DNA of 64,000 bases, taken from IMG/VR virus record IMGVR_UViG_3300025853_000035, positions 1 to 64,000 of that record. One strand, given 5' to 3'. Of the stretch, positions 4,107-58,997 are shown piece by piece; within the stretch, counting starts at the first letter, position 1, and each line of letters begins with the position of its first letter. The notes under the pieces are model-generated. The model was not told where the DNA came from and searched no databases. It worked only from the letters and a program-made list of their open reading frames with translations. The stretch is from a virus (Duplodnaviria; Heunggongvirae; Uroviricota; Caudoviricetes). The position numbers were made by a program, and so were the translations under genes.

Positions 4107-5870
4107 TCAGCGGTGGCCAGCGCCGGTCATCTTCTTCGTCCCGCGACGGGCCTTCTGCTTGGCCCATTTCAGATATTGCGAGGTGGCGTCCACTTGGTCG
4201 TCATTCTTGCCGTTAGGGAAGGCCACGAGTTCCTTCTCATAATCGGCAAGCCACTTGGCGCTTTCCGGCAGGTAGACCTGCCCGGCCTCGAACATCGGCG
4301 TCACTTCGTCGAAACGGAACGACTTGCTCGCGGTGCCCACCTCGATTGGGATCAGCGCGGTAGGAGCACCACCATTCGCCTTCAACTGGCAATAGGCCAG
4401 ACCGTTGCCCTTGGCTTCGACCAGCAGGGCGTCGGCGTCGTAGCGCTTCACCACGCGGGCGATCTCGGACGACAGTTCGACCAGTTCCATTCGCTTGCGG
4501 ATCACGTCCACCAGATAATGGTTCCGTTTGAGGTCTTCGATCCAGACCGTGATGACGGTGTAGTCGCTTCGCTCCTTGTCCGTGTTCGCGGCGTCAACCG
4601 AAACCACGGTGCGACGAATCTGGTTCTGCGTTCCCTTCTCAGGATCGGCCTTGGCCGGCGGATGGGTGTAGCGCTGGAACCATTCAGCATCGACCGCGCC
4701 GCCGCTCACGTCCATAGGCGTGCCCTGATACAGCGAGTTCCACGACGCGGAAGTCATATCGCTTCTGAGATTTTCCAATGCGTCGAGGTCGTAAACCTCT
4801 GGCCACAATGCTTCGCCGGACGCCCGGCCTAGAATATCGTTGTCTTCTTCGGCGATGGCGGGGAGATTAATAATTTCAAAGCGGTATTTTTTGCGTTTTC
4901 CCTCTTTTTCCTCAAGAGAATCAATGAGTTGGTCCGCAAAATCTTTTTCTATTTTTTCTTGCTCTTCTCTTTTTTCCCGTTCTTCGCGATCTGAGATGCG
5001 TCCGCAGAGGTCGTCAGAGTGCCAGCGGGTCATAATAATGCCCAGCGGGGAACCCGGCAGAAGGCGCGTGGAGAAGTCGTCTGAATACCATTTGAACGCG
5101 GTGTCGCGGATCGTCGGGCTTTCAGCGTCCTTGCGGCTCTTGTAGGGATCGTCCACCATACCGTAGTGACCACGGAAGCCGGAGATACCCTGTCCGACAC
5201 CCTTGCCGACATATTTGCCCTTACCATTGGTCAGTGCCCAATAGTCCATGGCGCGCATGTCGTGCTTGATCTTGATGTCGGGGAAGACGCGCTGGTAATC
5301 CTCAGACGCGATGATCTGGCGAACGGTTGCACCGATTTCCTTGGCGACGAAGTCCTGACTGTGCCCGGCTTGCAGGAACTTCTGCTTCGATCCGAACTTG
5401 CCGAACCACCACGCAGGGAAGTGGTGCGACGAGTGGGTCGATTTACAGTGCCCCGGAGGCATGGACAGCATGAAGCGCATGGTCTCCTTGGAAGCGGAGG
5501 ACATGAGCAAGTCTCCGATGAGTTTCTGGTGCGGCGACATGGTGTAACCATTCTCGCGCTGCATGAACTCATAGAAATCGTGGTAGCTCTCGCGCGCCAG
5601 TTCGATCCAGACTTCGTCCAGTTCGGCCTCGGCGAAGTCGATCGTCTTATCGAGCGTGGTTAGCTGCGTGTCGAGATCGTCGGACTGACTAAGCGTCCGA
5701 AGTGCTTGGTAGTCGTGGGGCGAGAGGGTTGTCTGCTTGCGGACTGCTTCCTCCACTCGCGTCTGCAAGGACTTGAGTGACTTGACCGATGAGTGCAAGC
5801 GTGTTTTGCGGTCCCGCTTGCTTTCCGCTAGTTGCATCTGCTTGTGCTTTCTCGAACATTTTGAGGGCAT
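4107..5870 (-). CDS. terL: terminase large subunit
   Basis: 587-aa ORF. ATPase region plus the MTRWHSDDL motif and a C-terminal nuclease region (VSVDAANTDKERSDYTV, GKNDDQVDA). The start is uncertain: the listed start overlaps terS by about 180 nt, and later Met codons exist. Confidence 0.8.
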   Translation of the reverse strand: MPSKCSRKHKQMQLAESKRDRKTRLHSSVKSLKSLQTRVEEAVRKQTTLSPHDYQALRTLSQSDDLDTQLTTLDKTIDFAEAELDEVWIELARESYHDFYEFMQRENGYTMSPHQKLIGDLLMSSASKETMRFMLSMPPGHCKSTHSSHHFPAWWFGKFGSKQKFLQAGHSQDFVAKEIGATVRQIIASEDYQRVFPDIKIKHDMRAMDYWALTNGKGKYVGKGVGQGISGFRGHYGMVDDPYKSRKDAESPTIRDTAFKWYSDDFSTRLLPGSPLGIIMTRWHSDDLCGRISDREEREKREEQEKIEKDFADQLIDSLEEKEGKRKKYRFEIINLPAIAEEDNDILGRASGEALWPEVYDLDALENLRSDMTSASWNSLYQGTPMDVSGGAVDAEWFQRYTHPPAKADPEKGTQNQIRRTVVSVDAANTDKERSDYTVITVWIEDLKRNHYLVDVIRKRMELVELSSEIARVVKRYDADALLVEAKGNGLAYCQLKANGGAPTALIPIEVGTASKSFRFDEVTPMFEAGQVYLPESAKWLADYEKELVAFPNGKNDDQVDATSQYLKWAKQKARRGTKKMTGAGHR

Positions 5871-30944: not shown

Positions 30945-30979
30945 TTCGGTGTCACCAACAACGACTCAGGAGACAGACC

Positions 30980-56700: not shown

Positions 56701-56913
56701 CTCGACCACGTCGGGATTACCCGCGACGAAGATGCCGACAGCATCGCCGGTGTCAGTGACCAGATCGATCCACGGGTCGTTGGCATTTGACGCCCACGCG
56801 CCGACTTGCAGGAGATCATCGCTCGTGAACTCGTTCCCATCAGCATCGGAAACGGTGATCGCGCCGGTCGTGCGATCGAACAGATCGCAGATGAATTTGG
56901 TGTATAGAGCCAT
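53755..56913 (-). CDS. DNA primase/helicase (P4/D5-family NTPase C-terminal domain)
   Basis: 1052 aa. Walker A VITGGKGTGKSTL and Walker B FFVLRCSD in the C-terminal half, consistent with a phage/plasmid primase P4-type C-terminal domain. Central poly-acidic linker (EEDEEEEEEP). Confidence 0.65.
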   Translation of the reverse strand: MALYTKFICDLFDRTTGAITVSDADGNEFTSDDLLQVGAWASNANDPWIDLVTDTGDAVGIFVAGNPDVVEPQPSFDVSGGMIYMLDGDPVSGQKSGLHLCPLSVFLDSKGKVNLDGLNWYLPQDLDIQTPGTMTNITLMTGRRRDEAQGKWKEVSSTFGQFETMLQDHKEGQKDGPCFLQGQSANGARKAVAMIANHILGVDLDSGAPLDDVMRTIQQHGLEAVIYTTHSHLKNTSVIKRDHFMKWAEASEVEEEAVRDYLIKKKGVLPAIVEELTILDDAHHSEDGVVILVQHKPMPKFRAVFPLKEAFVFAKRGGSQKDAIDEWKERYAGFCTALDLFFDEKCVDPARLFYLPRHASKDKAFGSWVVCGEPLDLDKFDRVKMRRGRDNKRSAVASNAFTAAGGADDGDEDDANRYITSGGFNLKGWSIKHAKRFDVQAMLEDVIGGDFIREGRGNKAGVHVECPFEAEHSSFGGGGTFVVNASDNLEDGYEGGFTFNCTHNACSGRDRLDYLKELIEQELITPADLTNKDYLFELEEDEEEEEEPVKPKKPTPRADAPTTDEAEEPEFEDDDLDFGDSEETMLRAFNRRYAVIRTSGGVKILVEPRSADDDVIFETQGDVKLFEKNRVIWIAEGKQSKKLAGFDLWLEWDKRRTYRQVVFAPGRRVAKDIYNLFRGWPYEPVPTTWENILDNKDEPVAGDWSMLRGHIYENICESNDEYFEWLMTWLAMLFQKPEAKPGSTLVITGGKGTGKSTLFDFINKLLGFHGITVSQRKQIVGQFNGHLETALLMVCEEAFWAADPQAEGVLKDMITNKSVLIEKKGYDPIQSENYTRLALISNNDWVVPASLKDERRFFVLRCSDARQGDLEFFGLMREQMDKKGGLQAMLHDLLHWKPVKGTFASLFTPPKTDHLQKQQIETLSGVQKFMLELVKSGLYETSDENRFPSIELNDDRETMVYAKDLRAAVSDYVRFLFSSDKAKTSFDDISTVVGDWFGAREVKMKLDGQTNQSRVFIFPPLSQVRANLKESKGLDIEIMSEEDVKAMKVRGL

Positions 56914-56920
56914 GAGGACC

Positions 56921-57367
56921 TTATTTGGTGAGGTTGAGATCGTAGGTGGTCACCGGGCCACCTGTGTTCTTGTCGTGCAGCGAGGCTGCTTCGACGGCCT
57001 CTTCGGCGGTAGCCCCTGCGGCCAGCGCACCGAGGGCCAGCATCGTCCCGGAGCCGATTGCGGTGTAATCGGCATAGATCGGGACGAGGTGTCCATCATC
57101 GAATTCATAGGCGCGGCCGGAAACACGATCGACGAGCAGCGCGGAGAATTCGGAGGTGTTGTTGAGAAGGTCGGCCGGAACTTCGTCGCTATGACAACCG
57201 TCCTTGACCCACTTTTCGAGAATGCGCCGGTAACAGACAGCACCAGCCAGCGCGACGAGGTAATTGCCGCATTCGGCGATCTTGTCCCGGTGGCCATTTG
57301 TGTAGGTGTTATAGGCGATTAGGGTATCGGCAGCGAGGACGCCGTCGCGATAGCAGATGGTAGTGAT
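56921..57367 (-). CDS. HslV/proteasome-like Ntn-hydrolase protease (Thr1 directly after an unusual ATC initiator)
   Basis: TTICYRDGVLAADTL...AIGSGTMLALGALAAG aligns with HslV (TTIVSVRRNG...AIGSGGPYAQAAARAL). The listed 189-aa ORF contains a family promoter (TTGACA-N17-TATCTC) and SD GGAGACGGACC inside its N-terminal extension. The codon right after the SD is ATC, followed by ThrThr. Confidence 0.55.
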   Translation of the reverse strand: MTTICYRDGVLAADTLIAYNTYTNGHRDKIAECGNYLVALAGAVCYRRILEKWVKDGCHSDEVPADLLNNTSEFSALLVDRVSGRAYEFDDGHLVPIYADYTAIGSGTMLALGALAAGATAEEAVEAASLHDKNTGGPVTTYDLNLTK

Positions 57368-57394
57368 GGTCCGTCTCCGCCGGGTGAATGGGTG

Positions 57395-57430
57395 CGGAGA
57401 GATAATCGAAACTGTCGTTGGTGTCAAGTT
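57395..57430 (-). promoter_or_regulatory. promoter-family copy driving the HslV-like gene
   Basis: Reverse complement: AACTTGACACCAACGACAGTTTCGATTATCTC ... GGCGGAGACGGACCATC. Confidence 0.5.
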
Positions 57431-57491
57431 AGAATTGCGGTGAGTAATAACTCGGACGCCAACGGACGATGGCGGAAAGGGTGAGGACAAA

Positions 57492-57530
57492 GAAAAGGCC
57501 CGGCTCTCTTGCGAGGACCGGGCCTACCAC
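57492..57530 (-). terminator. rho-independent terminator for a minus-strand transcript
   Basis: Minus strand reads GGCCCGGTCCTCGCAAGAGAGCCGGGCCTTTTCTTTG. Confidence 0.6.
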
Positions 57531-57699
57531 CGGATTTCACCGTGTTTGGAGACAGACAATCTCCGGCGGATAACTCCTGATAGGGGGTTGCACCCTACCG
57601 GTCAAGGCACCTTTCGCTGCTGCCCGAACGAGGATAGCGGTCTATCGACTTCCGCCCTCGCCAGCACGTCTACCACTTACCCGAGGTTTATCACCGTCA

Positions 57700-58183
57700 T
57701 GCCGGCTTCTAGCCTCGGACGAGGGAGTCGAACCCTCATTTGCCCAGCTTGCCCTACCTTGGGCCTTCTCTTCCTTCATCCGTCGCGAACGGTAGGTTCG
57801 GACAGCAGCGAAAAGTGTCTTGCTCCCAGATAGGATGATTCTTCCTATCTGTCAAACACAGTTCAGAAGGAGGCCCAACACAGTCGCGCGGGGGAGTGCG
57901 ACTAGCGGTCAGGGGTGGGGTCGTGCTGGACCCCCATCTGAACTGTGTGGCCCGTTCTGTTGCTCGGTGGGCCAGCCCGCACCTTAGGAGTTGATCCCCA
58001 AGGAATTCACCGGACACAGTTTAGGCCGAAGCCCTCACATTCGTCCGGCTGAGATCACGCCGCGAGGCGCATCTCGACAACTTCGTTGTCGTTGACAGTT
58101 ACGTCGGTGATCCGCATGACGGGCGGTGTCTAAACGGGTCGCGTCCTTCTCTCAGCCTTGCCGCTCGATCCTAATTCACCCCC
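57700..58183 (-). ncRNA. ssrA: tmRNA-like (ssrA-like) gene: tRNA-like 5' end, tag reading frame, downstream T-arm-like element (3' end unresolved)
   Basis: Minus strand from 58183 reads GGGGGUGAAUUAGGAUCGAGCGG, which fits the tmRNA 5' consensus GGGGnUGAuUcuGGAUuCGAcGGG. About 95 nt downstream is an in-frame tag (V)NDNEVVEMRLAA followed by a TGA stop (plus-strand coordinates about 58046-58085), ending in the degron-like LAA. A GAGGGTTCGACTCCCTC T-arm motif sits at 57721-57737. No clean 3' acceptor plus CCA was found. Confidence 0.45.
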
Positions 58184-58997
58184 ATCAACTGCACTGACAA
58201 CCAACACCTCCATCCGCTAAGACTTTGGCGCTAGGGTCGCTAAACCCTAACCGGCGTTCCGACTGTCAGCATTACGCTTGGGCGCGCTGTCAGTGCAGAT
58301 GGTGGAGGTGGCGGGCTCTGCCCCCGCGTCACGGCTCAACCTCGATCGTCCGAATAACGACCATATTCTTTGTGGCCCAGCGCCCCGCGCTGAGAAGCGC
58401 GGTCGATAACGGCACGATGGGCCAACCTCGTTGCGATCAGATCGGTGAGGGATTCGAACCCTCGGCTGGACGGTGCGCCATAATTCTGACTACGGAGCCG
58501 TTGCCTCCGAATTCCATCCAGTCTTGCATCGATCACCCTTAAACCACTCGGGCAACCGACCTGATCAAACCTCCCCTGCACACTCGGAATAGCGGGCAGA
58601 CATTGCGGCGCTGAAAGCGCGGGAGGAAATTCTTGCCATCACTGGCAATGTGAAACCTCAAAGCTCAGCAGGCTCACTACTTCCTGCCTATAGCCGCGTC
58701 AGTGTAACGCCACACCTCTCCACGAGGAGCAAAAGGTCTCGCATTGCGAGTGATACCCGGCGGAGTAACAACAAGGAGACAAATCCGCTCCGCCGGGCAT
58801 CCGATCTGGAACTTCCCCGCATGGGCTGCTCCGTCTCGATGAACACATCTCTAAGCGATTCGTTACAGAACGTCAAGCGAAAATGTCGCTGCATTCTTTT
58901 GGCGCATCACTTTTTAGAGAGAGGTGACAAAAATCTGATTTCCTGCCAAAGAGCGGGGCGCGGCCGAGGAGGTCGAGCAATCAAAGTTAGGTGCTAA

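Follow-up and report, generated by a model that had tools for sequence, protein, structure and literature searches.

How is a gene translated when an ATC stands where its start codon is expected? The question is raised by a peptidase gene in IMG/VR virus record IMGVR_UViG_3300025853_000035, from a tailed phage (Caudoviricetes), of which we analysed positions 1 to 64,000 (hereafter the window, to which all coordinates refer). On the minus strand, ATC-ACT-ACC (57367-57359) comes immediately after the Shine-Dalgarno (SD) block GGAGACGGACC and begins a frame of 148 codons; the codons after the ATC are ACT ACC ATC TGC (Thr-Thr-Ile-Cys) and the frame ends in a TAA at 56923-56921 (Table 1). The gene encodes a compact, 147-residue Thr1 peptidase of the proteasome family of N-terminal nucleophile (Ntn) hydrolases, of the phage PPH type. 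Our best reading, which we consider likely, is that fMet initiates translation at the AUC, that removal of the Met exposes Thr1, and that output is low.

The arrangement of SD, ATC-ACT-ACC and a Thr in second place had been pointed out in the initial annotation of this locus, and it can be read directly; the remaining coordinates and sequence statements made there agree with our minus-strand reading, except in the length of the N-terminal extension. The open reading frame (ORF) listed for the gene, 56921..57490, runs to 189 aa from a TTG start and was described as carrying a 42-aa extension; the extension is present, but 41 codons precede the ATC, whose Ile is residue 42. The TTG at 57490-57488 coincides with the last bases of the U-tract of an upstream terminator, the other in-frame TTG (57427) is the -35 hexamer itself, and neither has an SD. 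Beginning in a terminator U-tract and crossing the gene's own conserved promoter, the 189-aa ORF is, as far as its sequence can tell, an annotation artefact. The SD, on the other hand, has the conservation attributed to it: GGAGACGGACC is a one-mismatch variant of a recurrent ribosome-binding site (RBS) of this phage, GGAGACAGAC, whose exact sequence the window contains 13 times (0.17 expected). Several of these copies run straight into an ATG (for example GGAGACAGACC-ATG at 30969), and the 6 nt between GGAGA and the ATC is the spacing seen at the window's ATG genes that carry the same motif.

The ATC recurs in assemblies and relatives. Both GenBank relatives, the Erythrobacter phages XM05 and vB_EliS-L02 (L02; CbK-like siphophages), have ATG-ACN-ACN aligned at this place, with the same TTGACA box and SD, and an MTT start is found in 54 of 62 protein homologues. 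The window protein, in the 168-aa form that the gene caller begins at the TTG of the -35 box, is present on 23 contigs; the six displayed come from six runs or samples (SRR6829923, SRR6829731, ERZ27275019, SRR5580654, SRR6829916 and SRR5579952) and all read ...GGAGACGGACC ATC ACT ACC. The same codon is found in JGI 3300007345, in JGI 3300072335 and in two ERZ3820700 contigs, whose names record ~60x coverage. By locus, it is present in one that is 99.89% identical to the window (L014; three mismatches and one gap in 3.5 kb), in a 155-kb contig of 93% nucleotide identity (L013), and in two 93%-identical variants from another sample (L203 and L204). A sister lineage at 87-88% nucleotide identity (L015/L020) has CTG in the slot. 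In P0070, a variant of the window protein from one contig, Pro stands in place of Thr2 (TIPTICY).

Since the slot could be bypassed by a start further upstream, the frame preceding it matters. In L013, L020, L203 and L204 a TAG closes the frame 14 codons ahead of the slot, and the codons in between include no ATG, GTG or TTG; another locus (L018, with ATT in the slot) has its frame closed 13 codons upstream. The window's own upstream frame is open because the relatives' TAG is TCG there. Downstream of the slot, the 148-codon frame is intact in all variants of the non-ATG clade, and the ratio of non-synonymous to synonymous substitution rates (dN/dS) is 0.27 between the window and L013, 0.13 between the window and L015/L020, and 0.32 between L013 and L015 (p 5e-4 to 6e-11 against neutrality). 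For codons 2-44, the N-terminal 43, it falls to 0.02-0.13 (p 1e-3 to 7e-9). These codons can be reached only by initiation at or just before the slot, as no canonical start translates them. The substitution pattern thus indicates that related phages keep the non-ATG start under selection.

A census of the slot across the family places the ATC in context. Metagenome and viral collections were searched with patterns of internal peptides, so that the census is blind to the start codon; a scan of a genome collection was left out because its pattern held the initial Met and was biased toward ATG. In 116 distinct coding sequences, the codon before Thr1 is ATG (79), GTG (26), TTG (6), CTG (2), ATA (2) or ATC (1), and 20 further loci with divergent N-termini have ATG (15), GTG (2), ATT (1), ATA (1) or ACG (1). 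Combined, these ~136 loci carry 94 ATG, 28 GTG, 6 TTG, 3 ATA, 2 CTG and one each of ATC, ATT and ACG: every slot holds ATG or a codon that differs from it by one base, and nothing else. Anomalous gene calls yielded more non-ATG slots, namely ATA (L017), ATT (L018) and TTG (L016). In a neighbour-joining tree of the close family, non-ATG states appear in at least five separate places. As a control, the primase gene of the same loci has ATG at its conserved start wherever the downstream region is readable, the exceptions being L023, where the contig is too short, and L002 and L021, where the start overlaps the peptidase stop. Two loci (L042 and L043) share their first 14 residues (TVLAFRDGVLAADT) and yet differ in the slot, TTG against ATA, and the ACG, in L164, is the sole middle-position neighbour observed. 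The weak codons (CTG, ATA, ATC, ATT and ACG) make up ~6% of the ~136 loci. In model bacterial genomes and plasmids, ATG, GTG and TTG account for 99.95% of annotated starts (Hecht et al., bioRxiv 10.1101/063800), so that ~6% of weak starts here compares with ~0.05% in that survey, which is itself limited by the calls of annotation pipelines. The recurrence of near-cognate starts throughout the family is a modest new observation.

How might the AUC be used? Transcription from the gene's own promoter, with a predicted start near 57392 and thus downstream of both in-frame TTGs, would yield a leader of ~25-30 nt carrying GGAGA. The SD would position the 30S subunit, and the initiator fMet-tRNA would read the AUC 6 nt past GGAGA. 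As the second residue is Thr, deformylase and methionine aminopeptidase would then remove the Met and expose the catalytic Thr1 (expected N-terminus TTICYRDG), as they do in HslV and in the ATG-bearing relatives. AUC is a weak start codon, for which reason output per mRNA should be low and probably little enzyme is made. The start site would be immovable, because active-site chemistry fixes Thr at position 2, so that a mutated ATG could persist only as a codon that still initiates; this constraint would explain why near-cognate starts are so visible in this peptidase family. Natural weak starts, such as the AUU of infC and the AUC, AUA, AUU and CUG of translation table 11, likewise place a near-cognate codon at normal SD distance. 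IF3 discriminates against near-cognate codons, and this discrimination belongs to the model of infC autoregulation. Unlike infC, the peptidase gene gives no evidence of a feedback loop, and unlike other weak starts, those described here recur across many lineages of one phage family at a position pinned by active-site chemistry. Initiation at AUC, AUA, AUU and CUG in E. coli reaches ~0.1-3% of the level of AUG, and an N-terminal Met is seen by mass spectrometry at such starts (Hecht et al., 10.1101/063800). Of the explanations offered in the initial annotation, AUC initiation is the one that the comparative evidence favours, through the recurring ATC, the closed upstream frames and the start-slot census.

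We also looked for features that might accompany a weak start. A leader structure compensating for the codon was considered and dropped, as the 5' leader with the start region shows no significant structure (z +0.66). By eye, the SD is not visibly stronger in non-ATG than in ATG lineages, and we make no claim of SD compensation. A phage-encoded initiator-like or Ile tRNA was likewise considered; none is among the 11 tRNAs of the window.

Several points weigh against AUC initiation. What we read directly is the layout, the reality of the ATC and its conservation, the purifying selection on the N-terminus, the closed upstream frame in relatives, the fold and the catalytic residues; initiation at AUC itself we infer rather than observe, together with the transcription start, the removal of Met, the low expression and the reason why low expression is tolerated or favoured. 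The small fraction of AUG activity reported for AUC was found in E. coli, and the host here differs, being probably a sphingomonad. In the window, 52 open codons precede the slot and two TTGs are in frame among them, so that a longer product from a read-through transcript is conceivable. The -10 hexamer, TATCTC, is off consensus, and a generic scan for sigma-70 promoters and terminators missed both the strong upstream terminator and the conserved promoter, the latter because of the final C of its -10 hexamer; both assignments rest on direct reading, conservation across phages and folding. Finally, the dN/dS of 0.13-0.32 in the non-ATG clade compares with 0.05-0.11 between ATG-bearing relatives, and constraint in that clade could be partly relaxed.

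The last of these points would suit the alternative that survives best, which is that the start has been lost and that the gene is silent, or a decaying pseudogene, in the non-ATG clade. We think this improbable. No canonical start is present, and gene callers truncate or misplace the gene, as might be expected of a decaying frame; however, the frame is whole in every variant, dN/dS remains far below 1 with the N-terminal 43 codons the most constrained, and all catalytic residues are retained. In addition, the clade holds at least two start-type codons (ATC and CTG) and none that is unable to initiate, and the same pattern recurs in unrelated lineages.

Initiation might instead occur at another non-canonical codon a few codons upstream and add a short leader peptide, which would be trimmed or tolerated. 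Candidate triplets exist: L013 has ATT/ATC just after the TAG, an ATC stands 7 codons upstream in L013, L203 and L204 (ACC in the window), ATT and ATC occur among the 13 open codons of L013 and L020, and the window has ATT ATC at 57407-57402. We nevertheless hold this very unlikely. The triplets are in or beside the -10 box, where they are probably untranscribed or at the extreme 5' end, and have no SD at working distance, whereas GGAGA stands before the slot codon as it does at the ATG genes of the phage. The upstream codons are not conserved as protein either, as the TAG and non-synonymous changes attest. Moreover, Ntn-hydrolase chemistry requires a free Thr1 amine, which an uncleaved leader would block.

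A propeptide, also suggested in the initial annotation, would be made from an upstream TTG (57490 or 57427) as an extension of 21-41 residues that is removed autocatalytically, as in proteasome beta subunits. The open codons and the two TTGs are found in the window and in near-identical copies, and gene callers chose the TTG at codon -20 (P0001, P0063 and P0065), although ~40-50 open codons are not unusual at this G+C. In close relatives a propeptide made from a canonical start is excluded by the TAG inside the supposed extension, with no canonical start after it. In the window it is disfavoured because the extension holds the terminator U-tract, the conserved promoter and the SD, and because the slot codon is of a start type in every family member examined; the two candidate TTGs are themselves parts of the terminator and of the -35 hexamer. 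Gly is the usual residue before Thr1 at proteasome cleavage sites; here residue -1 is not Gly but Ile, Leu or Met, a variability that sets it apart from a conserved processing site. PPH-type homologues, furthermore, have been reported to lack propeptides (PMC8665760). Altogether we give a propeptide little chance. Lastly, a misread ATG, whether from sequencing or from assembly, has practically no probability left: ATC is one base from ATG, and all ATG-bearing relatives align perfectly at the codon, but the identical ATC in six SRR and ERZ runs or samples, two JGI sets and two ERZ3820700 contigs, with near-identical (L014) and diverged (L013, L203 and L204) loci among them, rules it out.

To identify the protein, we had to go beyond curated models. 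Pfam PF00227 (Proteasome) stayed below threshold (13.6 bits against a cut-off of 22.4), and among NCBIfam models only TIGR03634 appeared, at 17.9 bits against a cut-off of 224, with no HslV model at E<=1. The assignment therefore needed PHROGs, a family profile searched against the PDB, and structure prediction. The protein matches PHROG 1040, 'peptidase HslV family', with E 4.9e-33. An AlphaFold2 (AF2) model built on a 41-sequence family alignment has pLDDT 96.8 and pTM 0.89, and in Foldseek against the PDB it matches archaeal and eukaryotic 20S beta subunits, HslV and BPH (TMq 0.67-0.80, probability 1.00). The family profile finds BPH first (5ovs, E 1.2e-11), followed by proteasome beta5 and HslV. 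In the 41-sequence alignment T1, G8, A11, D13, K28, G41 and G104 are invariant and S105 is present in at least 90%; T1/D13/K28/G41 correspond to the proteasome catalytic set Thr1/Asp17/Lys33/Gly47, shifted by shorter loops. The Ntn-hydrolase fold is thus confirmed by profile, model and structural search alike.

The HslV-like protease of the initial annotation is accordingly an Ntn peptidase, but one better filed under PPH than under HslV. It shares with HslV (ClpQ) the Ntn fold (Foldseek 1m4y and 6kui, E ~1e-8). HslV begins Met-Thr-Thr-Ile and is processed to Thr1; here Thr-Thr follows the start slot, and relatives encode MTT. The HslV name is also used by PHROG 1040 and by the GenBank annotation of the XM05 homologue. 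True membership fails, however, because the curated models are not matched at threshold and no HslU lies adjacent. The window protein is ~28 residues shorter than HslV, and its gene sits among an RNA unit, a tmRNA, a primase and RtcB, with no HslU-type ATPase gene beside it; this check covered ORFs within ~10 kb, so that an ATPase encoded farther away, or reliance on the HslU of the host, is possible.

PPH proteins were described as a phage family by Fuchs et al. 2021 (Bioinformatics 37:4694; PMC8665760). They are compact, of ~140 residues, without insertions, helix H2 or the C-terminal S12/H5, and their genes belong to tailed phages and prophages, for the most part of Proteobacteria; the window protein, with 147 residues, is likewise encoded by a phage, judging from its relatives in Erythrobacter phages XM05 and L02 and on IMG/VR contigs and from the phage-type genes, tRNA array and tmRNA of the window. 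As in PPH proteins, BPH is the nearest characterised relative, there is no propeptide, and equivalents of Thr1/Asp17/Lys33/Gly47 are present. In the AF2 model, read by itself, helix H1 (43-54) is followed by a helix of only five residues (64-68) before the next strand. By size, phage habitat, nearness to BPH, lack of a propeptide and an apparently reduced H2, the peptidase fits PPH better than true HslV. BPH (PDB 5ovs, 5ovt and 5ovu) is its best relative of solved structure by profile and among the top fold matches, and the two align at Thr1 and at the AAD, K and GSG motifs; BPH differs in being cellular and not phage-borne, and in its ~200 residues, with insertions that the window protein lacks. 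Among viral models, the closest structural matches are the 'proteasome subunit beta' of Caulobacter phage CcrBL9 and the 'Ntn hydrolase domain protein' of CcrColossus (E 8e-14 and 2e-10, respectively; 31-34% identity, 131-146 aa). These are CbK-like phages, of the same broad group of large siphophages with a tmRNA and many tRNAs, and vB_EliS-L02 has itself been called CbK-like (PMC9127768). The PPH paper (PMC8665760) nowhere uses the words 'start codon' or 'methionine' and mentions neither the ATC nor the recurrent CTG, ATA, ATT and ATC starts, and papers on vB_EliS-L02 and on marine phage proteomics contain nothing on the N-terminus or function of the peptidase.

The control region upstream of the slot is itself conserved. 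The copy of a phage promoter that the initial annotation placed inside the extension is confirmed as TTGACA, 17 nt and TATCTC, and although synonymous sites have diverged to saturation, each of the 25 close-family loci keeps TTGACA in the corresponding position. To speak of a promoter family is thin as a window-wide statistic, since exact TTGACA-N17-TATCT occurs just twice in the window, against 0.34 expected at <=1 mismatch. The terminator further upstream folds into the stem GGCCCGGUC-CUC-GCAA-GAG-AGCCGGGCC, followed by UUUUCUUUG, at -29.8 kcal/mol (z-score -3.2, with none of 200 shuffles as stable), and the element is conserved in XM05, L02 and L013. Copies of GGAGACAGAC are found at 367, 1045, 2487, 23487, 28562, 29323, 30969, 33265, 41519, 41989, 46406, 47402 and 57548; 12 of the 13 are RBSs that a start codon follows after 0-3 nt, and similar leaders (...caacaacga...) often precede them. 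That the SD is conserved well past the match to the anti-SD suggests a second reader of GGAGACAGAC. The leaders of ATG-bearing relatives (L003-L010, L022, L023, L001 and L004) have a tiny ORF between the -10 box and the SD, for example ATG GCG CTC TTC TGG AGA TAG, and a hairpin with the SD GGAGA in its loop, whose arms appear to covary (GCGCT/AGCGC in L003, AGCCG/CGGCT in L004); by eye, the window clade has neither the tiny ORF nor the hairpin.

The neighbourhood of the peptidase is rich in genes for RNA and translation. In minus-strand order it comprises a tRNA array of 11 genes (63978-62758), ORFs without a family match, the tmRNA, the RNA unit, the peptidase, the primase and an RtcB RNA ligase (53564-52323; Pfam E 1.2e-122). 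RtcB and the tRNA array flank the locus and, with the tmRNA, make up a translation-maintenance neighbourhood; L02 further on encodes an aminoacyl-tRNA hydrolase. The same gene order is seen in XM05 and L02, but these phages are related, and the shared synteny is therefore not independent evidence for a functional link between tmRNA and protease. The tmRNA-like gene that the initial annotation put next to the peptidase is a real tmRNA by Rfam (RF01849 alpha_tmRNA, 68.8 bits against a gathering threshold (GA) of 50; RF04321 tmRNA_permuted, 79.6 bits against a GA of 47), but the RNA-like unit lies between the two. ARAGORN found the 11 tRNAs and did not report the permuted tmRNA, whose tag frame, read by eye from the alignment, is (V)NDNEVVEMRLAA-stop.

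Table 1. Features of the peptidase locus (window coordinates).
Feature	Position	Strand	Remarks or basis
Primase/helicase-type gene, 1052 aa	53755..56913	-	PHROG DNA primase families
Proteasome-like (PPH/HslV-like) Thr1 peptidase coding sequence	56921..57367	-	ATC in start slot, 147 mature codons, TAA
ATC in start-codon slot, directly 5' of Thr1 codon	57365..57367	-	Sequence, aligned relatives, independent assemblies, census
Shine-Dalgarno block GGAGACGGACC	57368..57378	-	GGAGA 6 nt before ATC
Promoter-like element: TTGACA (57427-57422), 17 nt, TATCTC (57404-57399)	57399..57427	-	Inside apparent N-terminal extension
Intrinsic terminator of upstream RNA unit	57488..57525	-	Folding, conservation
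Promoter-to-terminator RNA-like unit, ~370 nt	57488..57855	-	Own promoter, strong terminator
Permuted (two-piece) alphaproteobacterial-type tmRNA gene	57946..58400	-	Rfam RF01849, RF04321

The RNA-like unit has a TTGACA-N17-TATCT promoter at 57855-57828 (minus strand) and matches no Rfam family at threshold. In its apical loop stands GUCUGUCUCC (57557-57548), which complements the RBS motif GGAGACAGAC exactly. This 10-mer is invariant and the stem arms covary between phages, being CCGCCGG/CCGGUGG in the window and GUGUCCCGG/CCGGGACAC in L02. Counterparts are found in L001 (~4440-4600, minus strand), L002 (~2815-2925) and L013 (~2630-2745). The motif GGAGACAGAC has 12 gene-proximal copies in the window and four in 50 kb of L02, against 0.12 expected there, and the unit may be a phage small RNA (sRNA) that masks a class of the phage's ribosome-binding sites. 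In the window and L013 the unit has ~230 extra nt (window ~57600-57827, minus strand) that are absent from XM05; this insert is closed by a long inverted repeat, CGCUGCUGUCCGAAC / GUUCGGGCAGCAGCG, and contains the T-arm-like GGGUUCGACUCCC. On the other side of the peptidase, the ATG of the primase, for whose homologue DUF5906 is recorded, stands 7 nt past the peptidase stop, a gap that makes co-transcription probable. The pairing of the two genes is conserved, with the junction TAAGGTC(A/C)C(N)ATG and a gap of 7-8 nt (56913-56923 in the window); the TAAGG could serve as an SD for the primase, in which case the junction could couple translation of the primase to the peptidase frame.

Could the weak start be a regulatory device? 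Under such a scheme the protease would be kept near-silent by an AUC, CUG, AUA or AUU that IF3 discriminates against and released as start fidelity or ribosome availability shifts during infection, perhaps acting together with the adjacent putative sRNA and the translation-repair module of tmRNA, tRNAs and RtcB. We regard this extension of AUC initiation as doubtful, and an IF3-linked role is possible but unsupported.

The peptidase adds a member to a known phage protein family, and its probable start codon is rare but recognised. For annotation, the consequence is that gene callers give forms of 168 or 189 aa that start in the -35 box or in the terminator, or forms of 94-105 aa without the active site, while the correct product has 147 aa with Thr1. 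With Thr fixed at residue 2, the family offers an unusually clean positional anchor for spotting non-AUG initiation from sequence, and it supplies selectable cases from nature in which near-cognate initiation in alphaproteobacterial hosts can be tested. Our results also suggest that a very low dose of PPH protease is all that phages need or tolerate, and this low dose may be either selected, for instance if the protease is toxic, or merely tolerated.

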